A stretch of 13,129 nucleotides of DNA from Chthonomonadales bacterium (GTDB lineage Bacteria; Armatimonadota; Chthonomonadetes; Chthonomonadales; Chthonomonadaceae): contig JBBQPO010000175.1 of assembly GCA_038217285.1 (NCBI GenBank), positions 1 to 13,129 on the forward strand, written 5' to 3'. Below are positions 1 through 12,064 of this stretch, piece by piece; position 1 is the stretch's first letter; each line of letters begins with the position of its first letter. The notes below the pieces were generated by a model that was not told the DNA's origin, did no database searches, and worked only from the letters and a program-made list of their open reading frames with translations. The translations under genes were made by a program, and so were the position numbers.

Positions 1-165
1 GCGAGAGCAGGAGCAGAACGGGTAAAATATCGGGCATGGGTTTTCGACTTTCGAGAGTTGTTGGCTTGGCGTCTACAACTTCGATCCGAAAGCCCTATTC
101 TCATTCATGGATTCGCCACCCGTTTTGGCGAAGGTATTGTACTAACCGATCCTTTTATTTTCTGA
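1..165 (+). CDS. possible 3' end of a gene entering from the left edge (ARAGAERVKYRAWVFDFRELLAWRLQLRSESPILIHGFATRFGEGIVLTDPFIF*)
   Basis: Frame +1 is open from base 1 to TGA at 163-165 with protein-like composition. No family recognised. Confidence 0.35.
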   Translation, partial: ARAGAERVKYRAWVFDFRELLAWRLQLRSESPILIHGFATRFGEGIVLTDPFIF

Positions 166-315
166 GAAATCTGCCTGTTTGCCCTACCCGAGGTTCAGGA
201 GAGTCTCCAGGCGCCTTCGACAGCGCCGTCCCATAATGGGAGTCATATCAAAACAAATGTCTATCTGAACACCGAGGAAATTGTACGATCGCTACAGGAA
301 GTCTTCTGTTAAAAC

Positions 316-422
316 GCAAATCGGCTCTGTTTCCGTATAAATTTGGAAGCAGAGCCGAGGATAACTGACCGAGTGCGTGTTCGAGAAGTGTGGATCCTCA
401 CCACCTTGAATTCGGAGGTTCG
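316..422. repeat. structured intergenic repeat, copy 1 (107 bp)
   Basis: Aligns with 3134-3239 with 6 substitutions and 1 indel. Contains hairpin 321-358 (15-bp stem, two G-T pairs, TATAAATT loop) and a longer imperfect hairpin at ~363-420. Weaker similarity extends left to ~297. Confidence 0.95.
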
Positions 423-472
423 CCGTAATCCGATGCGCCTCGGAGCGCGATCAAGAAAGGGACGCGCGCCAT

Positions 473-886
473 TCAGCAGAGCGCCGCCGCGTCCATAGGG
501 CGCGTATAAAGCTTCGTTGTATCCGTGGCTTCGCTGCGGAACAGGCCCAGAACGTACGCCCGGCAGTGCCGGAGGTTGTTCAGGATCACGCAGCGGTCCT
601 GTCGGGTTTTGGCGACCAGCAGGGTGCCCTGCACAACCCCGAGCATCAGGTCGGCGATGCTGGCCGGGTCGAAGTCGATTACAGGTGGATGCGCCTTCTT
701 GGCGTCGGCGAGCAGCGTGCGCACATCGCCGGCCCACATCGCAAAGTGCGCCTCACACAGGTCTCCCAGCCTCCGGTTCGACGCCCCCGTCTCCTGCGCG
801 ACCGTGCCGACGACGCAGCCGGAAACCGCCTCGGGATGCAGGTATGTTTCGCCCATTACTTCAAACAGCCAGTCCAGACGGTCCAA
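473..886 (-). pseudogene. 5'-truncated TetR/AcrR-family regulator (NemR/LmrA-like C-terminal ligand domain only)
   Basis: Motifs LDRLDWLF, GCVVGTVAQE and LGVVQGTLLVAK match TetR C-terminal domains. An in-frame TAA lies two codons upstream and no N-terminal HTH is present. Confidence 0.75.
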
Positions 887-887
887 T

Positions 888-1180
888 TGTTATAATGACT
901 TCTGGGCAGGGAAAGCGGAAATCTATATGCGGCATAAGAGAAGCACCAGAGAATGCGGCCAGTAGAGGACCCGGACCATGCGTTCCAACACACCGCCGAG
1001 CGCATGGCGGAAAGCGATATAGGCGCCGACACCCAGGAGATCTACAGACAGTAGGAAGCAGACTTACAGGAGGCGGTCCAGGCAGTGCGGAAGGCCAGCA
1101 AGGATATCCGGATAAGCGCTTACCGAGCGGAGGTACGGGCCGATCAGAGCGTGCAATGCATTCTCCTGGACATAGGCTGA
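888..1180 (+). pseudogene. probable decayed gene fragment of unknown function
   Basis: Frame 953-1180 reads MRPVEDPDHAFQHTAERMAESDIGADTQEIYRQ*EADLQEAVQAVRKASKDIRISAYRAEVRADQSVQCILLDIG* with one internal TAG (1052-1054). An upstream frame CYNDFWAGKAEIYMRH (888-935) may join via a frameshift. Confidence 0.4.
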
Positions 1181-1269
1181 ACGTACGCTGCGGCAAATTA
1201 TCATTGAAACCTGATGTATTTGCGCTCCGTCTTCTCTAGGTATCGGAACGATATTTGGAAGGAAGTTAT

Positions 1270-1917
1270 ATGAAATCCGCTAAGACTGGGATCGCCGTGC
1301 TGGGATTGACCTGCGCCTTGAGCACGTCTGCGCTTGCAAAGATGCCTGCTAATCTCATTGTTCCCGGCCAGCATATTGGCCGGATCCGTCTCGGCGCGGA
1401 CGCGAAAACACTGAAAAGATTGGGCGATCCGGACACGGGAGAGGCGGCGATGATGAAGCAGTGGATGACCTGGTATTCCAAACCGCCGGCGAATCAACCG
1501 GATGCCGTTCCTGCGGAACTGGATGTTTATGTTACGCTGGCCCACGACGGTGATGGTTCGGAAAAAGTGATTACCGAGGCGCGCGTCACGTCCGCGTCCT
1601 TCAAACTGGCCAACGGCATCGCGGCCGGCAGTAGCTTCACCCATATCAAGCATGCTTATCCCCATCTGAAACTGGTGCAGACCTACACGACAAAAAAATC
1701 CAACGGGCCCATTCGAATATACGATGACACACAGCGCGGCGTAGCGTTCGAGATTTATCGTGGCCGGGACGGCAAGTCTGCCGCAGGACAGTGTAGCGCA
1801 ATTATCGTGCATTCCCCCGGCAAGGTCGCGGGAGCCAATTACCTTACGCTTTCCGACTATCTGCAAGGCCAGAGCGATCCCCGCAACCACACCAGACTAC
1901 ACTTTTTGCCTGAATAG
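1270..1917 (+). CDS. secreted hypothetical protein (Sec signal peptide)
   Basis: ATG at 1270 follows a purine-rich GGAAGGAAG RBS. MKSAKTGIAVLGLTCALSTSALA is a typical signal peptide with an A-x-A cleavage site. The mature part starts with LIVPGQHIGRIRLG. Confidence 0.85.
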   Translation: MKSAKTGIAVLGLTCALSTSALAKMPANLIVPGQHIGRIRLGADAKTLKRLGDPDTGEAAMMKQWMTWYSKPPANQPDAVPAELDVYVTLAHDGDGSEKVITEARVTSASFKLANGIAAGSSFTHIKHAYPHLKLVQTYTTKKSNGPIRIYDDTQRGVAFEIYRGRDGKSAAGQCSAIIVHSPGKVAGANYLTLSDYLQGQSDPRNHTRLHFLPE

Positions 1918-1929
1918 CCTCTGTGTCTG

Positions 1930-1955
1930 CCGACGGCCTCCCGTATGGTCGTCGG
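1930..1955 (+). terminator. stem-loop downstream of the secreted-protein gene (possible terminator or stabiliser)
   Basis: CCGACGGCC-8nt-GGTCGTCGG forms a 9-bp stem with one G-T pair, ~13 nt after the stop. There is no clear U tract. Confidence 0.4.
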
Positions 1956-2008
1956 GATGCATTAAACTTTTGAACTTCATGGACACAATCGAATGTAAAC
2001 CGCGTAAT

Positions 2009-2040
2009 GCATAGTGAGACTTGTCTCATAGTGACTATGC
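2009..2040. promoter_or_regulatory. nested palindromes, operator-like
   Basis: GCATAGT...ACTATGC (2009-2040) overlaps TGAGAC-TT-GTCTCA (2015-2028) and CATAGT-G-ACTATG (2027-2039). It ends 40 nt upstream of ATG 2081. Confidence 0.35.
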
Positions 2041-2080
2041 CCGAAGGCTTTCTGAATCCTCCGTAACGGACAAAAAAATT

Positions 2081-2956
2081 ATGAACATCGGTAAACATGA
2101 AGAAAAGGCAGCCAGCTACTATCCTGTGTATCAGTCTCAGCCGCTTCAGACAGCCGAGACCGTGCCTGCGCACACAGAGGCAGCGCTGCAGGAGCGCGTA
2201 ACGCCCCAGGAGTTTGCGCAAGCCCTGGCTTCCCTGGAAGCGCGGAAGGAAAACGCCGAGCATGCTTTGCAAGAGACGGTGCCGATCGGCGAAGCGTTGC
2301 AGCAACTGAGCATCTCCGCCGACGCCGCCGAAATCCTTGCGGAGGTGCAGCAGGAGCGTCAGCGACAGGCCCGAAAGCAACAGGCGCTGAAGCGAACGCT
2401 GGTTCAGCGACGACGGCTGGGCCTAGGCCTGGGCGGCGCTCTTGTTTTATCCCTGGGCATCTTGATGATGTCTTCTTTTCGGAGCACCCCTCTGGAGGTT
2501 GCCGCGCCCGCGACCGTCGTGTCGCCACAACCTGTCTCTGCCGAGATCCGCACGCTTGCGGAAGTGTCCGAAGGACAACTGGTGCAAACCAATCCGCAGG
2601 ATTTTAAGGCGCTGCTGCAAAATCCAGCCCTATCGCCTGCCAGCGTGATCGTTCAAACGCTTGGCAACTCGCCTGTGATGGGAAGCTGGACGCTCGTGAA
2701 GCATGACGGGCATATCTACATGCGCGGCTATATGGCGGCGATGTCGGCCCAGGCAATGGCGCAGATGAAATCCCTGCAGGTTTTCAGCATGCCTTATGAT
2801 AGTTCGCAGGTAAACGGAATGGCGTATGTGAAGCCCGTAACCATGCGCCTGGGCAGTTTTTCGTGGCAGGGCATGAGCAGCGAGGCGGGAATTCCTGCCC
2901 TTACGGTGTCCAAACTCCATTTGGACCATTACGGGAACGAGCATCCGAATTTGTGA
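2081..2956 (+). CDS. single-pass membrane hypothetical protein (helical/coiled-coil N-terminus, TM, C-terminal domain)
   Basis: Long ORF; ATG 2081 preferred over TTG 2021, start uncertain. An Ala/Glu/Gln-rich helical region is followed by RRR and the hydrophobic LGLGLGGALVLSLGILMM segment. Confidence 0.85.
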   Translation: MNIGKHEEKAASYYPVYQSQPLQTAETVPAHTEAALQERVTPQEFAQALASLEARKENAEHALQETVPIGEALQQLSISADAAEILAEVQQERQRQARKQQALKRTLVQRRRLGLGLGGALVLSLGILMMSSFRSTPLEVAAPATVVSPQPVSAEIRTLAEVSEGQLVQTNPQDFKALLQNPALSPASVIVQTLGNSPVMGSWTLVKHDGHIYMRGYMAAMSAQAMAQMKSLQVFSMPYDSSQVNGMAYVKPVTMRLGSFSWQGMSSEAGIPALTVSKLHLDHYGNEHPNL

Positions 2957-3052
2957 AGTACCGGATCATTTCCTTCGCCGCTTCTTTCCCCCTTCTACAT
3001 TGGTATCCAGCCGCACCTGGATGTGACTCACGGAGATGATAATCTCCCCTCC

Positions 3053-3082
3053 TTGACGCCCCCCCGGTGCCTCATGCACACT
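3053..3082 (+). promoter_or_regulatory. possible sigma70-type promoter pointing into repeat copy 2
   Basis: TTGACG (3053-3058)-N18-CACACT (3077-3082), preceded by the palindrome GGAGAT-GATA-ATCTCC (3032-3047). The -10 match is imperfect. Confidence 0.3.
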
Positions 3083-3133
3083 ATAGGCATCACTCTTGGA
3101 CATGCATTCGCTTTTAGAAACTTTCTGTTGAAT

Positions 3134-3239
3134 GCAAATCGGCTCTGCTTCCGTATAAATCGGAAGCAGAGCCGAGGATAACTGACCGAGTGCGTGTTCA
3201 AGAAGTGTGGATCCTGACTGCCTTGAATTCGGAGGTTCG
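3134..3239. repeat. structured intergenic repeat, copy 2 (106 bp)
   Basis: Direct repeat of 316-422. Perfect 15-bp inverted repeat TCGGCTCTGCTTCCG-TATAAAT-CGGAAGCAGAGCCGA at 3139-3175, then a long imperfect hairpin at ~3180-3237. Confidence 0.95.
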
Positions 3240-3253
3240 GATCCAGACAAGAG

Positions 3254-4081
3254 CTATCCCTGCGGAATGAAGGCTGCGCCGACAGGTCGGAAGTCCGACA
3301 CGGAGAACACATTCACCTGCTTGGCCGCATCGTAGCGGATGGTCCACTGATGCGGGAAGAAACCGGGGACCGGATACAACTGAGGCTGGTCGATAACGTC
3401 GGTCTCCGTCTGGTGCGACTGGAGGAAGCTGACGTCATCTCCGACCGGGGTTCCGTTTATATGTCCCTTGTAGATCAGGAAGTTCATCCCCACGGTGATC
3501 CGCGCCGGCTGACCTGCCGGCTTGGTGGGATCGTCGTAGCTCTGTCCGAGACCCGGAACGATCGTCGGCGGAACGCCTGCCGGCGCGCCTACGGGAACCT
3601 CACGCGGGTCTGGAACCGCGAACTCATTGGCAAACGTGGGCGGATCCGGCTGCGCCGGGGGATTGATCAGCATAACGCAATGGAAATGCTGCGGTTCTCC
3701 AGTGGGCCGGAATTGATCGATCGGGTGACCTGTAAAGTAGAAGAGGGCCATGGCTTTGTAGGGCGAAGCGGAAGCCTGTGCCGGAAGCGGAATGATATAG
3801 ACGTTGGGTTTATCGTCGGAGATCGGCGTGGGCGGCTGATTGGCGATGCCGGATTGTTCGAGTTCGAACCCGAACTCGAGTGGCGTCGCGCCGTTCGTCC
3901 GGACAAAGCTGCGGCCCAGAAGGTAGGATCCATGGGGTCCGTTGGTTGCGGTCACATCCGGGCCGAAGAAGGTCTGCCCGGCAGGCGTGTTGTTGTCGTT
4001 GCCGCCGCATCCGACAAGCATAGCGCATGCGGCCAGCGCAAGAATTCCAGTCGCAAATCGCGTCACCAAGTTGATTGACAT
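3254..4081 (-). CDS. lipoprotein, DUF5602/TTHB210-like (diverged)
   Basis: AGGAG RBS and lipobox LVGC followed by GG. The order of FGPDV...RSFV, IPLP..A...PY, GHP, HFH, VPGLG and QP..Y..PGFFP..W.IRYD motifs resembles DUF5602 proteins (family call from recall). Confidence 0.75.
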   Translation of the reverse strand: MSINLVTRFATGILALAACAMLVGCGGNDNNTPAGQTFFGPDVTATNGPHGSYLLGRSFVRTNGATPLEFGFELEQSGIANQPPTPISDDKPNVYIIPLPAQASASPYKAMALFYFTGHPIDQFRPTGEPQHFHCVMLINPPAQPDPPTFANEFAVPDPREVPVGAPAGVPPTIVPGLGQSYDDPTKPAGQPARITVGMNFLIYKGHINGTPVGDDVSFLQSHQTETDVIDQPQLYPVPGFFPHQWTIRYDAAKQVNVFSVSDFRPVGAAFIPQG

Positions 4082-4100
4082 GTATTTCTCCTATAGTATG

Positions 4101-4129
4101 TAGAATGCCCGCTGAGAGCGGGCATTCTA
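4101..4129 (-). terminator. perfect stem-loop after the AGE-family gene (terminator or mRNA stabiliser)
   Basis: TAGAATGCCCGCT-GAG-AGCGGGCATTCTA is a 13-bp perfect stem 13 nt after the stop at 4143. No poly-U tail. Confidence 0.6.
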
Positions 4130-4142
4130 ACGATTGAGAGGA

Positions 4143-6029
4143 TCAAGCAGGGACCAGGCGAACCTTGACTTTCGTCTCGTTCCCCGTGTGCTTTGCCCCA
4201 TGACCCCCGGCGCGGTTTCGCGAGAGACGCTGTTGGGCGTCCGGCGTTTGCTCGGTAGGTAGTTTCACCGTAAGAGCCTTGGCGTCGAAATCCGTGTACG
4301 GTTCGCCGTTGATCCAGACCGATTCGATTTTGATGCTTCCCTCGGGAAGAAGGTCTGGAGACACGCGAAGGATATTGTCCTTGAACCCGCCCGCTTGCGG
4401 CTTGAAGTACAGATCCAACGGCTGCTTTGTCACCAACAGATTGCTGTAAACTGCGGCAAGGTAGCCGAGTTCCGTGGCATGATAGGTGCCCATCGAATGG
4501 CTGCCCTTATTCCGCTCGTTTCCAAGCAGGTAAGGCAGGCCGTTCGCCAGGACATTGAAGTACACGGCCCCGGAATCGGTGTCCAGGAACCACGCATTGT
4601 AGAAAGCGGAGGACTCCCGCGCCAGCTTGAGATATTCCGGCGTTTTAAAGATTCCACCAAGGATCAAGTAGGCAAGGATGCCCTGCTCCTGCTGCCACCA
4701 CGCCTTACGATCGTGGAACGCCAGGCGACGGGTTTCTTCTCCCGGCCCAAGATGCCGCTCGCATACGTCGTACCAACCGCCACGCTGCTTGTCCATGCCG
4801 ACTGCGGGGATCGTGTCTCCCAACTGCTTGGCAAGCTGAACATAACTGTCTTTAGGCCGAAGCGAGTTCATGCGCATCAGGTTCCAGGCAATCTTCAGGT
4901 CATGGCCGGCGACCGCGCGGTCTTGCTGCCATCCCCAGGTCTTGTCCGGGCTCCAATCGTCGAAGAATTTCTCCTGCACGAACGGGGTATCGTCCTTGGC
5001 GGGGAACTTGTCACGGATCGTATCGAAGGTCAGTTCCAGGAAGTCGGCGTACTTCTTATCGCCGGTCGCCAGATAGAGGTTAATAAGGTAAGCAGGAGCA
5101 TGGTCACCGACCGAGTTCCAGTTTTTGCGCGCCTGGTTGTGGCCCAGCGATTCCGCTTTGGGATCGAAGGTATCCGTGGTGATATGTGAATAGTAACCGC
5201 CGGTGGGAGACGTGTCCAGGTAGTACTTATTGAACAGGTTGATCGTCTTGTCCGCGTCCTCCAGAATGCCGGGGTCGCCCGTGATGCGGTACGTCTGGAT
5301 GGGGCCCGCGAGCGCATAAATCTGCTCGTAGCAAGGCATCGCGCCGTAATCGTCTCCGAACAGAGAGCCAAGGACATCCTTGTTGCCGCCCGGCTGAACG
5401 TCCAGCGCATGCAGCCAGTAGACGACTCCCTCCGATTCCTTATCACGCTTAACGATGTTGTCGCGCAGGTACTGGGTTCCTTTTTCGGCCGCTTCGAGGA
5501 ATCGATCCTCGCCCGTCAAGAGGTACGCGGTGGCGAACCCGTATACGGTGCGAGAAATGGTGTCGGTCTCCTGGATCGTGGTGCCCAGTTTAGCGCCGTC
5601 CAAAAACAGGCTCGTGCGATACTTCGAGTAGTCGATCTCTCCGCCATCGAACTGCGCCTTGATGTAGAAGTCGGCGATATGCTTTACCTGCTCGATCCAC
5701 CAGTCCTGCTTTTCAAACACAAAGTTGCCCGGCTTCGTGCCCGGGAACACCAGGTGCTTGGCTTCGAACTTATGATCGCCGCCTTCCGGGTAATAGAGGC
5801 CGTAAGCGAACACATAGTTGCCGGGCACGAGCAGTTCCTTGAGTTGCCCGCTCGCGTCCTTATACGACTCTCCGAGATTCCGCACATACTCGTAGAAAGT
5901 CGCGGACGTCAGCTTGCCGCTAAACTCTTTGTCTCCCGGAGTCTTGATGGTGAAAGTGCCTTGTTCGGCATCCGCCGCCGTAATGTATCCGGCGATCGTG
6001 TCGGAAAAGATAAAATTAATGTCATTCAT
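4143..6029 (-). CDS. AGE-family (N-acylglucosamine/cellobiose 2-epimerase-like) protein with extra N- and C-terminal domains
   Basis: 628 aa with ISRTVYGFATAY, NWNSVGDH, AGHDLKIAW, KAWWQQEQ and KGSHSMGTYH, corresponding to AGE/CE (alpha/alpha)6-barrel motifs. GGGAGG RBS upstream. Confidence 0.88.
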   Translation of the reverse strand: MNDINFIFSDTIAGYITAADAEQGTFTIKTPGDKEFSGKLTSATFYEYVRNLGESYKDASGQLKELLVPGNYVFAYGLYYPEGGDHKFEAKHLVFPGTKPGNFVFEKQDWWIEQVKHIADFYIKAQFDGGEIDYSKYRTSLFLDGAKLGTTIQETDTISRTVYGFATAYLLTGEDRFLEAAEKGTQYLRDNIVKRDKESEGVVYWLHALDVQPGGNKDVLGSLFGDDYGAMPCYEQIYALAGPIQTYRITGDPGILEDADKTINLFNKYYLDTSPTGGYYSHITTDTFDPKAESLGHNQARKNWNSVGDHAPAYLINLYLATGDKKYADFLELTFDTIRDKFPAKDDTPFVQEKFFDDWSPDKTWGWQQDRAVAGHDLKIAWNLMRMNSLRPKDSYVQLAKQLGDTIPAVGMDKQRGGWYDVCERHLGPGEETRRLAFHDRKAWWQQEQGILAYLILGGIFKTPEYLKLARESSAFYNAWFLDTDSGAVYFNVLANGLPYLLGNERNKGSHSMGTYHATELGYLAAVYSNLLVTKQPLDLYFKPQAGGFKDNILRVSPDLLPEGSIKIESVWINGEPYTDFDAKALTVKLPTEQTPDAQQRLSRNRAGGHGAKHTGNETKVKVRLVPA

Positions 6030-6060
6030 GCGTCCACGCCCCTCCCTTATTTGAACTTCG

Positions 6061-8247
6061 TTACGCCTTCGAGACGAGAACCACGATGGTGCGATCGTTC
6101 ACGAAGTACTCGCTGCCTTCAATCTCGACTTCATTCCCGGGTTCCGCAATATCTTCAGGAGAAGGCAAAGAGGTGTCGGCGGACCGATACCACTTCCGTC
6201 CTGGAACCGTCGGCAACTGGAAATTCGCTCCCTCCCAGTGCATGTTCATGATCACGTGAAGATCCGGATCGCCGTCGAATCCGCCCATCGTGTAGGCAAG
6301 GATCCGCGCCTCGGCGTCATGCCAGCCGGGACTGTTTAGTTCATAGCCGTGCCAGGAGATATCCGGCACGCCGCGTTCGTTCAACTGTCCGTTGAAAAAG
6401 CGCGGCCGGTGCAGACTCGCATGCGATGTCCGGCGCGTGATGATGCTGGACCAGAACCGAAAAAGGTCGTTGTGTTTTTCGGGCAGGGTCCAATCGAACC
6501 AACTGATCTCGCTGTCCTGGCAGTAGGCGTTGTTGTTGCCCTGTTGGGTCCGCCGCACTTCATCGCCCCCAAGGATCATGGGCACGCCCTGTGCGAGCAT
6601 CAGGATCGTCGCGAAGTTCTTGATCTGGCGGTTCCGCAACGACTCGATTCCCGGATCGTCGGTGGGACCTTCCACGCCGCAGTTCCAGCTGAGATTGTCG
6701 TCGATGCCGTCGCGGTTATTCTCGCCGTTCGCGTCATTGTGCTTATAGTCGTAGGAAACCAGATCGTTGAGCGTAAACCCGTCGTGGCAGGTGACGAAGT
6801 TGACGCTGTTGATCGGCAGTTCTCCCGTGGTTTCAAAGATGTCCGCGCTCCCGGAGATGCGGTTCGCCACATCGCCAATGATGCCCGGTTCGCCTTTGAC
6901 GAAACTGCGGATGGTGTCACGGAATTTTCCGTTCCATTCGCCCCACCGATACCCCGGGAAGTAGCCGACCTCATACAGTCCCGCCGCGTCCCAGCATTCC
7001 GCGATCACCTTGGTGTCGGCGAGCATATCGGAAAGCTCGATGTTCCAGATCACGGGAGGATCGAGCATCGGCAGCCCGTCCTGGCCTCGCGTCAGGATGA
7101 CGGCCTCATCGAAGCGAAATCCGTCTACATGCATCTCCCTTACCCAGAAGTCCAGACTATCGACAATCATCTTCTCGGCGATCGGATGGTTTCCGTTGAC
7201 CGTGTTGCCGCAGCCGGTGTAGTCCATATAGTACTGGTGGTCTTCGGTGGAAAGCATATAATAGACGTGATTGGCGAAGCCCTTGAAGTTGATCGTCGGC
7301 CCCTGATCGTTGCCTTCGTTCGTGTGGTTGTAGACCACGTCCAGGATCACTTCGATGCCCGCCTTATGGAAGGCCTTCACCATATCCCGGAATTCGTCGA
7401 GGTGGGATCCGTATTCCGGCGAAACGCAGTAGCCGTTATGGGGGGCGAAGAAGCTGATGGTGCTATAGCCCCAGTAGTTTGTAAGCGGCTTCCCCGTCAC
7501 GGGACTGATGCGCAGCACTTCCTTCTCGTCGAAGTCATGCACCGGCAAAAGCTCCACGGCGGTGATGCCGAGTTGCTTGAGATACGGGATTTTCTCGATC
7601 ACGCCGGAAAACGTGCCGCGCCGCTTCTCGTCCACGCCGGACGTGGGAGACCGGGTGAAGCCGCCGACGTGCATCTCATAGATCACGGTCTCCGCCATGG
7701 GGTGATTGAGCGGCTTGTCTCCCTCCCAATCGTAGGCGCAGGGATCGATGACCACGTTGCGCATGGAGGTCGCCATATTGTCTTCCTGGCCGCACGCATC
7801 CACGCGATTCCACAGACCGTTCGTATTGCCAAGCGCATACGGATCGATCAGCACCTTGTTGCGATTGTAGCGCTGCCCCTTGCCGTGAAGATCGCGCGGA
7901 CCGTCGAGTCGATAGGCATAATGCGCGTTGGGCTTCAGACCTTTGACGTATGCGTGCCAGAAGTGAAAGGTCTTATTCTTGGTCGGGTCCAGGTCGATGA
8001 CCGCGATGGGCTCGGGAGCGTCGTGCTCATCGAAGATCAAGAGCTCCACGGCGGTCGCTTCCTCGGCGAAAACACTGAAGTTCACACCTTCCGCATCCGG
8101 GGTCGCTCCCATCGGATGCGCGCGGCCACGCTCGACGATAAATTCACGCGATGGCGTCAGAGCCACGGCGGTAACGGTGGTCGCGGACGGTTCGGCTCCG
8201 TCCTTGGAATGGTCCTGTATCAGTGTCGATGTATCGGCTACGGTCAT
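6061..8247 (-). CDS. glgX: glycogen debranching enzyme / isoamylase (GH13_11, CBM48)
   Basis: Motifs LIDPYA, IYEMHVGGFT, NYWGY, DVVYNHT, YTGCGNT, DGFRFD, IAECWD, HDGFTL, SWNCGVEG and GNNNAYCQD are all present. Confidence 0.96.
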   Translation of the reverse strand: MTVADTSTLIQDHSKDGAEPSATTVTAVALTPSREFIVERGRAHPMGATPDAEGVNFSVFAEEATAVELLIFDEHDAPEPIAVIDLDPTKNKTFHFWHAYVKGLKPNAHYAYRLDGPRDLHGKGQRYNRNKVLIDPYALGNTNGLWNRVDACGQEDNMATSMRNVVIDPCAYDWEGDKPLNHPMAETVIYEMHVGGFTRSPTSGVDEKRRGTFSGVIEKIPYLKQLGITAVELLPVHDFDEKEVLRISPVTGKPLTNYWGYSTISFFAPHNGYCVSPEYGSHLDEFRDMVKAFHKAGIEVILDVVYNHTNEGNDQGPTINFKGFANHVYYMLSTEDHQYYMDYTGCGNTVNGNHPIAEKMIVDSLDFWVREMHVDGFRFDEAVILTRGQDGLPMLDPPVIWNIELSDMLADTKVIAECWDAAGLYEVGYFPGYRWGEWNGKFRDTIRSFVKGEPGIIGDVANRISGSADIFETTGELPINSVNFVTCHDGFTLNDLVSYDYKHNDANGENNRDGIDDNLSWNCGVEGPTDDPGIESLRNRQIKNFATILMLAQGVPMILGGDEVRRTQQGNNNAYCQDSEISWFDWTLPEKHNDLFRFWSSIITRRTSHASLHRPRFFNGQLNERGVPDISWHGYELNSPGWHDAEARILAYTMGGFDGDPDLHVIMNMHWEGANFQLPTVPGRKWYRSADTSLPSPEDIAEPGNEVEIEGSEYFVNDRTIVVLVSKA

Positions 8248-8344
8248 AATAGTGTTCCTGCTCTCTACTTATTGGATCGAGGTGACGCCGAGCTCCACGC
8301 TGCCGAGCATGTGAGCGTCGCCAGCATCCGCCCGAACCGTACTG

Positions 8345-8764
8345 CTAGGAAAGAGCCGGCGGGTTTTCTTCGTCTACAAACCCCTGGCTTATTTCCACGA
8401 TATTGCCGTTCGGGTCCTTGACCCAGACAGTGCGCCATCCCGGTATGAAGTCATCGAAGCTTAGCGGCCCCAGTGTCACCTGGGCGTCCGCCCCCATCTC
8501 CTTCAGTTTGGCGTCCACGTCCTCGACCTGAAAGGCAATGTGCCTCCAGGCAGGGAAGCCCGGTCCATCTTTGTCGGCCGCCGGATCCGGCGCTTCGCCA
8601 ACCGCCTGAAACAGCTCGAGGTAGACATCGCCGACCTTTAGAAAGACGATCTGGTCTTTGCCAAGCGGAATCACTCGGGCGCGTCGGAAGCCGAAGTAGC
8701 GCGTGTAGAAGCGCTCGACCGCGATAGGGTCCGAGCACGAAATCGCAACATGCGAAAAGGCCAT
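8345..8764 (-). CDS. VOC family (glyoxalase I/epimerase-like) metalloenzyme
   Basis: HVAI, LELF, RHIAF.V.DVD and DPNGNIVE motifs. The predicted metal ligands H5, E50, H75 and E124 are intact. Confidence 0.92.
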   Translation of the reverse strand: MAFSHVAISCSDPIAVERFYTRYFGFRRARVIPLGKDQIVFLKVGDVYLELFQAVGEAPDPAADKDGPGFPAWRHIAFQVEDVDAKLKEMGADAQVTLGPLSFDDFIPGWRTVWVKDPNGNIVEISQGFVDEENPPALS

Positions 8765-8775
8765 GCGTTCCTCCC

Positions 8776-9351
8776 TTACCCCGCTTTTGCCAGCATGAGG
8801 TCGATGATCTTGCGAGCAAACAAATGACAGTGACCGCCTGTACGCGCGGTCACAAGGTCCGTGCCATCCACGACTACGTCCTGGTCCACATAAACGGCGC
8901 CCATATTAATGGCGTCGCCATGCAGGTTGTTATGCACGACCACATTGCGGCCGCGAACGAGTTCGGGCGCGGGAGCGACCAGCCACATCCCGTGGCAAAT
9001 GATGCCTTTGATGACATCCTTTTCCGCAAAAGCACGTTGCAGGAAGACCGTCGCGGGCGGAAGCTTACTGGCGTCCTCCGTGTAGCGCAGGCGATCGGAG
9101 ACGATGCCCGACGGCACGATGATGGCGGAGTAGCTGCGCAGTTCCTCGTCCGACATGTTCTCGAAGCTCTCGCGAACCTCGAACGGCACCTTCCACTCAT
9201 GACCGGTGAAGGTGAGCTGGCTCTGTCCCCACATGCGCGTAAGGAAGTGCAGCTCGATTCCCTCTTCGGGGAAGCGATGCTCGTAGTAGAAGATTTCCTT
9301 CTCGTAGTAGTCGCCCTCGATGAGGACGCCGACCTTCTTCTTGACTGCCAT
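8776..9351 (-). CDS. DJ-1/PfpI family protein (YhbO/PfpI-like)
   Basis: KKVGVLIE..Y...E (E19), AIIVPSG, nucleophile elbow ICHG (C119), and VVVDG.DLVTAR. Confidence 0.93.
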   Translation of the reverse strand: MAVKKKVGVLIEGDYYEKEIFYYEHRFPEEGIELHFLTRMWGQSQLTFTGHEWKVPFEVRESFENMSDEELRSYSAIIVPSGIVSDRLRYTEDASKLPPATVFLQRAFAEKDVIKGIICHGMWLVAPAPELVRGRNVVVHNNLHGDAINMGAVYVDQDVVVDGTDLVTARTGGHCHLFARKIIDLMLAKAG

Positions 9352-12024: not shown

Positions 12025-12064
12025 GACGGGCATCCCCGGCGCTTTGGCGCCGGGGATGCCCGTC
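12025..12064 (-). terminator. perfect 18-bp intergenic stem-loop (attenuator or stabiliser)
   Basis: GACGGGCATCCCCGGCGC-TTTG-GCGCCGGGGATGCCCGTC lies 10 nt after the stop at 12075. The following tail is only weakly U-rich. Confidence 0.6.

Follow-up and report, generated by a model that had tools for sequence, protein, structure and literature searches.

A lineage-specific, two-copy structured repeat at gene ends in a Chthonomonadales bacterium

Relation to described intergenic elements

Several described classes of bacterial sequence resemble the locus analyzed here: intrinsic terminators, small palindromic intergenic repeats, small RNAs derived from 3′ untranslated regions, and DNA sites that function when folded as single strands. 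The locus is a repeat from a bacterium of the Chthonomonadales that lives in soil or sediment and is uncultured. It lies on contig C175 of the draft genome G000, an assembly of 6.2 Mb in 459 contigs. The whole contig, 13,129 nt, was analyzed and is referred to as the window. Unless stated otherwise, all coordinates are those of the window, and the + strand is the strand as presented.

Like an intrinsic terminator, the element contains a hairpin (hairpin 1) with a long G+C-rich stem and, on the − strand, a U-rich 3′ tail, situated shortly after the stop codons of genes on the same strand. Unlike a terminator, it is conserved as a unit of ~130 nt, which is far beyond what termination needs. The hairpins of terminators in related genomes are flanked on both sides, by an A-tract and a U-tract; the tail of the element is present on one side only, and it is weak. 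Moreover, one sequence occurs at two unrelated genes, and the substitutions between the copies fit the opposite strand.

The small palindromic intergenic repeats include REP/BIME, ERIC, Correia, and RUP-type MITEs. The element shares with these that it is repeated, folds strongly, is located at gene ends, and would be co-transcribed into 3′ trailers. It differs from them in comprising two copies on one contig and in having no family in related genomes. The original prediction had included a REP- or MITE-like element among its candidates. This identity is contradicted by the copy number, as two copies in 6.2 Mb is not the dispersal expected of such repeats, and by inspection of the aligned ends and flanks, which revealed neither terminal inverted repeats nor target duplications.

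Small RNAs that derive from 3′ untranslated regions or share a terminator with the upstream gene are a further point of comparison. Read on the − strand, the unit likewise has a 5′ edge that is sharp, a start that is single-stranded and rich in C and U, and an internal hairpin followed by a terminator hairpin. In contrast to what such an RNA would lead one to expect, the substitutions weaken the − strand helices of the element.

Finally, G-T pairing tolerated on only one of the two strands also characterizes sites that function when folded as single strands. An integron attC site is a single imperfect hairpin with inverse core sites, found next to gene cassettes and the integron integrase. Both attC sites and the ends of IS200/IS605 elements resemble the present element in their strand-specific, G-T-tolerant pairing and in the occurrence of direct copies on one strand. 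The element differs from both in having two hairpins instead of one long imperfect hairpin, in the lack of a nearby integron integrase, Y1 transposase or TnpB, and in its spacing of 2.8 kb with intervening genes on both strands.

The repeat unit, its predicted fold and its substitutions

The unit occurs as two direct copies, at 286–422 (copy 1) and 3105–3239 (copy 2). These are ~92% identical and 2.8 kb apart, with copy 2 lying downstream in the same, + strand, orientation. A duplicated element had been predicted at 316–422. The duplication is real, copy 2 being recovered by both a repeat search and an alignment, and the unit, of ~125–137 nt, extends 5′ of that interval. The repeat search yielded two pairs: D1, matching 340–422 to 3157–3239 (83 nt, 93%), and D6, matching 313–342 to 3131–3160 (30 nt, 93%). 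The one-base offset between these pairs is due to a 1-nt indel. In an alignment of 286–430 with 3105–3247, similarity set in at ~286/3105, was strong from 298/3117 and weaker before (286–297 in copy 1), and ended abruptly after 422/3239. This sharp 3′ edge is one base beyond the end of P1, the predicted closing helix described below. A covariance model built from the two copies, R1, scored 156.1 bits at 296–424 and 149.1 bits at 3115–3241. Within the unit, the copies are separated by 11 substitutions and two 1-nt indels; a 38-nt run that includes 359–373 contains no difference. The six substitutions predicted within 316–422 were all confirmed, and a 1-nt indel in the loop of hairpin 1 was found in addition.

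Both copies fold strongly on the + strand, with z-scores of −4.4 and −4.7 and none of 200 shuffled sequences folding as well. The RNAalifold consensus comprised 39 pairs on the + strand (−45.3 kcal/mol), compared with an energy of −28.4 kcal/mol on the − strand. The predicted + strand consensus is a three-way junction composed of a closing helix (P1), a P2-P3 arm, and a P4-P5 hairpin. P1 is predicted to pair 298–306 with 414–421 in copy 1 and 3117–3125 with 3231–3238 in copy 2. The adjacent bases 302 and 303 of this helix exchange places from one copy to the other, and either order pairs with GG. P2 is predicted to pair 314–318 with 374–378 (3132–3136 with 3191–3195 in copy 2), position 315 forming a C-G pair in copy 1 and a U-G pair in its counterpart. 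P3 is hairpin 1. In copy 1 (321–358), its stem pairs 321–335 with 344–358 through 15 pairs and closes an 8-nt loop; in copy 2 (3139–3175), it has 15 perfect Watson-Crick pairs and a 7-nt loop. The pairs of T330 and T344 in copy 1, G-U on the + strand, are A-C mismatches when read on the − strand. After hairpin 1 comes an unpaired 15-nt stretch at 359–373 (3176–3190), identical in both copies, which forms an internal loop in the consensus fold. Hairpin 2 spans 379–411 (3196–3228) and consists of P4 (379–385 with 405–411) and P5 (390–393 with 401–404).

Single-sequence folding favored outer pairs other than P2. The outer pairings first proposed were present when copy 1 was folded by itself; the consensus of the longer alignment prefers P1 and P2 in their place. 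When folded using DNA parameters, the + strands of the two copies agreed at hairpin 1 only and disagreed elsewhere.

The differences between the copies were then mapped onto the consensus fold. As originally claimed, the stem substitutions at 330 and 344 (hairpin 1), 383 (P4), and 402 and 403 (P5) interconvert G-C or A-U pairs and G-U pairs on the + strand. The remaining substitution of 316–422, at position 399, is in a loop. P1 and P2 contribute three changes of like kind, at 302, 303, and 315, bringing to eight of eight the substitutions at predicted paired positions that maintain + strand pairing as G-U. The unpaired differences in the unit are three substitutions and both indels. The G-U states are evenly divided between the copies, each having four; those of copy 2 are at 3122, 3133, 3219, and 3220. 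All of these changes are one-sided: none of the 39 pairs is altered on both sides, as only two sequences exist. The rate of difference is equal in paired (8/78) and unpaired (5/47) columns.

The influence of chance on this pattern was evaluated by re-placing the observed substitutions, each X>Y change being moved at random among positions carrying the same base with the indels kept, and by running RNAalifold on both strands. For the 125-nt unit, a + strand consensus as good as that observed was obtained in 13 of 600 trials using copy 2 as the parent and in 1 of 600 using copy 1. The corresponding values for the − strand were 396/600 and 182/600. For 316–422, the values were 54/1000 (parent copy 2) and 11/1000 (parent copy 1) on the + strand, and 793/1000 and 512/1000 on the − strand. 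The − strand energies thus showed no signal in this test. Judged by the re-placement on 316–422, the rough figure of 1/32 given earlier for the chance of such polarity was about right. The resulting p-values, 0.002–0.05, pertain to a region that a very large scan had singled out for this very pattern, and the polarity statistics are those of two sequences, with P1 and P2 chosen by the folding program. The substitution pattern favors the + strand fold over the − strand fold in a manner that is suggestive, not decisive. The earlier claim of selection on a + strand structure is partly supported by the polarity and the strong folding; it is weakened by the number of sequences, two, and by the selection of the region for its pattern.

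Genomic setting and search for relatives

Both copies are located between tail-to-tail genes. At copy 2, the + strand gene is P0001 (2021–2956), encoding a membrane-anchored protein of 311 residues, whose stop codon is 149 nt before the copy. The − strand gene is P0002 (3254–4081), encoding a lipoprotein-like protein of 275 residues, whose stop codon is 14 nt from the copy. Homologues of P0001 occur in 19 of 68 genomes of the class. P0002 has no Pfam match, and its homologues, of 28–36% identity, occur in three other genomes. One genome, G018, contains four paralogues of P0002, and G000 contains none elsewhere. Three tandem paralogues (28–36% identity; L029, L031, and L032) occupy 2702–5032 of contig C239 of G018, indicative of an expanded family.

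The surroundings of copy 1 are gene debris. The − strand gene there is a TetR-type fragment (473–886; Pfam TetR_C_13, 6.2e-09), which stops 50 nt from the copy. It corresponds to the C-terminal ligand domain only. Its stop-to-stop frame does not extend farther upstream, and since no upstream frame contains the helix-turn-helix region, the gene looks truncated at about 886–890. A second gene fragment, at 938–1180 on the + strand, is interrupted by an in-frame stop codon at 1052–1054. It shares 73% identity over 121 nt with 22447–22567 of contig C47 of G000, a stretch within an intact frame of 185 residues (22068–22622). Besides these two fragments, the segment between the copies contains two intact genes. 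On the other side of copy 1, positions 1–139 are the end of an insertion sequence on the − strand, whose transposase gene runs from near 38 off the contig end and whose boundary is 146 nt from the copy. Seven further copies of this insertion sequence occur in G000, and G018 has 10 further matches besides that on its contig C125. One full copy (L049, 650–1537) matches DDE_5 (7.4e-31). The read depth of the insertion sequence is 371, as compared with ~6 elsewhere. Copies that are 100% identical to the window end occur in G018, on contigs C340, C183, and C593; the copies of G000 are at most 93% identical. The window contains no tRNA or tmRNA gene.

Searches for further copies returned little. In the 6.2 Mb of the genome itself, only the two copies were detected using BLAST (E up to 10), R1, or BLAST with a word size of 7. 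Across 61 relatives, 68 genomes of the class, and 401 of the phylum, searched using BLAST and, for the class genomes, R1, the sole real match was contig C125 of G018. This contig is identical to window positions 118–9070 at 8,953 of 8,953 positions, and G018 has these two copies only. Because the identity is complete, C125 is the same sequence binned twice and offers no independent evidence. The occurrence of the sequence in two bins of different genera, together with the P0002 paralogues and the insertion sequence identities, suggests that the contig derives from a G018-like organism and that its placement in G000 may be a binning error.

The remaining matches were attributed to chance. BLAST matches of 27 nt in G019, inside coding-looking sequence, and of 23 nt in G082 are of this kind. 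Exact-word scans yielded only the identical contig, labelled as a Chthonomonadales MAG, among genome_contigs (one 22-mer), and no match among metagenome_contigs (one 20-mer) or viral_contigs (one 18-mer). A 19-mer from the 3′ end of the element occurred at six metagenome loci and three foreign genome loci. R1 scored none of these nine, and the only match with E ≤ 1 (8.9 bits, E = 0.61) did not overlap the word. Applied to the 68 class genomes and to 14 loci surrounding homologues of the genes that flank the element, R1 returned weak matches only, and these were ordinary terminators. The weak full-length matches in related genomes are those in G018:C33 (25 bits), G033:C422 (18 bits), and L039 (17.5 bits). 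Each is an ordinary hairpin, preceded by an A-tract and followed by a U-tract, whose stem is of similar make to that of hairpin 1. The one match whose surroundings were inspected is located between convergent ORFs.

The element was also compared with described RNAs. A search of the whole window against Rfam 15 (E up to 1) yielded only a spurious match to MIR531 at 12025–12064. Those positions carry a near-perfect hairpin of ~40 nt and 77% GC between − strand genes for a TPP enzyme and a ThiJ/PfpI-like protein, and this hairpin is probably a terminator or an attenuator. When the copies were searched alone (E up to 10), the best match reached 22.3 bits, the gathering score of the family being 80, in agreement with the prediction that the element matches no Rfam family. 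The suggestion of a ribozyme-like motif did not hold up: none of the hammerhead, twister, and other ribozyme models reached E = 10, and nothing else points in that direction. A full-text search of the literature on noncoding RNA and intergenic repeats in the Armatimonadota returned only unrelated items. The element is outside every described family tested here; it is a lineage-specific, structured intergenic repeat located at gene ends.

Candidate roles of the two strands

The possibility that hairpin 1 terminates transcription of the − strand genes had been set aside too quickly in the original prediction, given its U-rich tail, its proximity to stop codons, and the passing of copy 2 in a terminator scan. 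Specifically, hairpin 1 of copy 2 was identified by the scan as terminator-like on the − strand (3175–3139); G-C accounts for 10 of its 15 pairs, and its tail is TTTGCATT. In the alignment, the tail occupies 307–320 in copy 1 and 3126–3138 in copy 2. Its − strand sequence is rich in U and its + strand sequence in A; what follows hairpin 1 on the + strand is GGATAAC. The tail of copy 2 has five T in eight bases, copy 1 is absent from the scan list, and the tails of both are interrupted by GC. Hairpin 1 is 79 nt past the stop codon of P0002 and 115 nt past that of the TetR-type fragment. On the + strand, a simple scan detected no terminator-like site between 2956 and the element, or after it. 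To judge from its sequence, hairpin 1 looks like the ordinary terminators of related genomes, but one-sided.

Building on the observed duplication, folds, polarity, gene layout, and lack of relatives, we tentatively propose that the element is a lineage-restricted, two-copy transcript-end module of convergent gene junctions, combining a − strand terminator with a folded + strand read-through transcript. Termination, read-through, and selection are the inferred parts of this proposal. Hairpin 1, which is G+C-rich and 15 bp long, would act on the − strand, together with its U-rich tail, as a factor-independent terminator of the gene ending 14–50 nt away, and the ~65 nt ahead of hairpin 1, comprising the linker and hairpin 2, would constitute the 3′ trailer of that gene. 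As P0001 has no + strand terminator-like site of its own, read-through of its transcript into the module is plausible. The + strand read-through transcript would then close, right at the edges of the repeat, into the three-way junction with its invariant 15-nt internal loop. That the + strand fold tolerates all of the differences between the copies suggests that this fold is constrained as well. Most simply, it would be a 3′-end structure that protects or stops the convergent transcript. Several observations count against the proposal: the same 137 nt occur behind two unrelated genes; the U-tail is weak, with copy 1 unlisted by the terminator scan; the polarity statistics have the limits given above; and the DNA-parameter folds of the copies agree at hairpin 1 only. 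In addition, copy 1, which follows a truncated gene in debris beside an insertion sequence, may be a relic free of constraint, and the polarity would then be luck.

It is possible, if somewhat unlikely, that the element is a − strand terminator and 3′ trailer only, copied once in a local rearrangement, with the G-U polarity arising by chance. Copy 2 would then work for the lipoprotein gene, and copy 1, behind a dead TetR gene, would drift. The hairpins are consistent with this, as the 15-bp stem of copy 2 is perfect and that of copy 1 is broken by two − strand mismatches. So are the debris around copy 1 (the TetR-type fragment, the fragment at 938–1180, and the insertion sequence end at 1–139), the equal divergence of paired and unpaired columns (8/78 versus 5/47), and the selection of the region because of its polarity pattern. 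However, random placement equaled the + strand consensus in just 13/600 and 1/600 trials. Moreover, the G-U states of copy 2 (3122, 3133, 3219, and 3220) also fit the + strand fold, and the pattern is thus not confined to the copy that is supposed to drift.

The fold and polarity evidence applies equally to a stand-alone small RNA gene on the + strand, ~125 nt in length, trans-acting, protein-binding, or catalytic, and present as two paralogous copies. The 38-nt invariant run, which includes the unpaired 359–373, and the + strand z-scores of −4.4 and −4.7 are in keeping with such a gene. Nevertheless, we consider it improbable. Similarity fades upstream, leaving no shared promoter visible; a promoter scan limited to sigma-70-type sites found none in 1–4300; and no + strand terminator was found by the scan after the element. 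In addition, the Rfam and ribozyme models were without match, and relatives occurred in none of the collections searched. A new + strand structured RNA of one Chthonomonadales lineage, a ~125-nt three-way junction with an invariant 15-nt internal loop that would be protein-binding or catalytic, is a more doubtful proposition still. In that case, the two copies would be paralogues that drifted by fold-keeping changes only, and the terminator-like appearance of hairpin 1 would be secondary.

Explanations at the DNA level are the least probable of those considered. Under these, the copies would be att-like ends of a decayed insert, or single-strand-folding sites, bounding a 2.8-kb mosaic. Direct repeats do flank a segment with two fragmentary and two intact genes, next to an insertion sequence, one repeat edge is sharp, and G-T pairing is held on one strand only, as in folded single-strand sites. 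Nevertheless, no integrase, transposase, or HUH domain was found in the ORFs and frames between the copies (Pfam, NCBIfam, and PHROGs; E up to 1), and 2.8 kb is far below the usual size of an island. A search for sequencing runs containing 1–4300 returned a single DNA run, X1, and no RNA run. The contigs of X1 on 1–4300 show no joint across the 2.8-kb segment; they also contain no variants within the element, the bin 3025–3168 being without cover. No empty site was found in the genome itself, G018 having been checked with window positions 1–300 only, and the folds obtained using DNA parameters disagree outside hairpin 1. Evaluated as an attL/attR pair, the locus has the direct repeats, no recombinase domain in the ORFs and frames scanned, and no close relative among the genomes searched in which an empty site might be sought.

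Other identities were rejected. An integron attC site is contradicted by the two separate hairpins, by the absence of an integrase domain from the scanned ORFs, and by a core-like GTTGAAT that occurs only on the 5′ side, in copy 2; IS200/IS605 ends are contradicted by the absence of a Y1 (HUH) transposase or TnpB between the copies (Pfam, NCBIfam, and PHROGs). A small protein is not indicated, as the + frames open at 343–498 and 3118–3270 share no start and run into unrelated flanks. Paralogous flanking genes are likewise rejected: the frame at 3–236 is unrelated to P0001 (E = 21) and is not protein-like. Finally, the differences are not limited to the adenines of one copy, and no reverse transcriptase was found, which sets the copies apart from the repeats of a diversity-generating retroelement.

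To our knowledge, almost no RNA biology has been described in the Armatimonadota. If the + strand fold is real, the element would be among very few structured RNA candidates from this phylum, and it would exemplify a single sequence used by both transcripts where convergent genes meet. For now, its main value is as an orphan candidate to be revisited given relatives or metatranscriptomes of the lineage.
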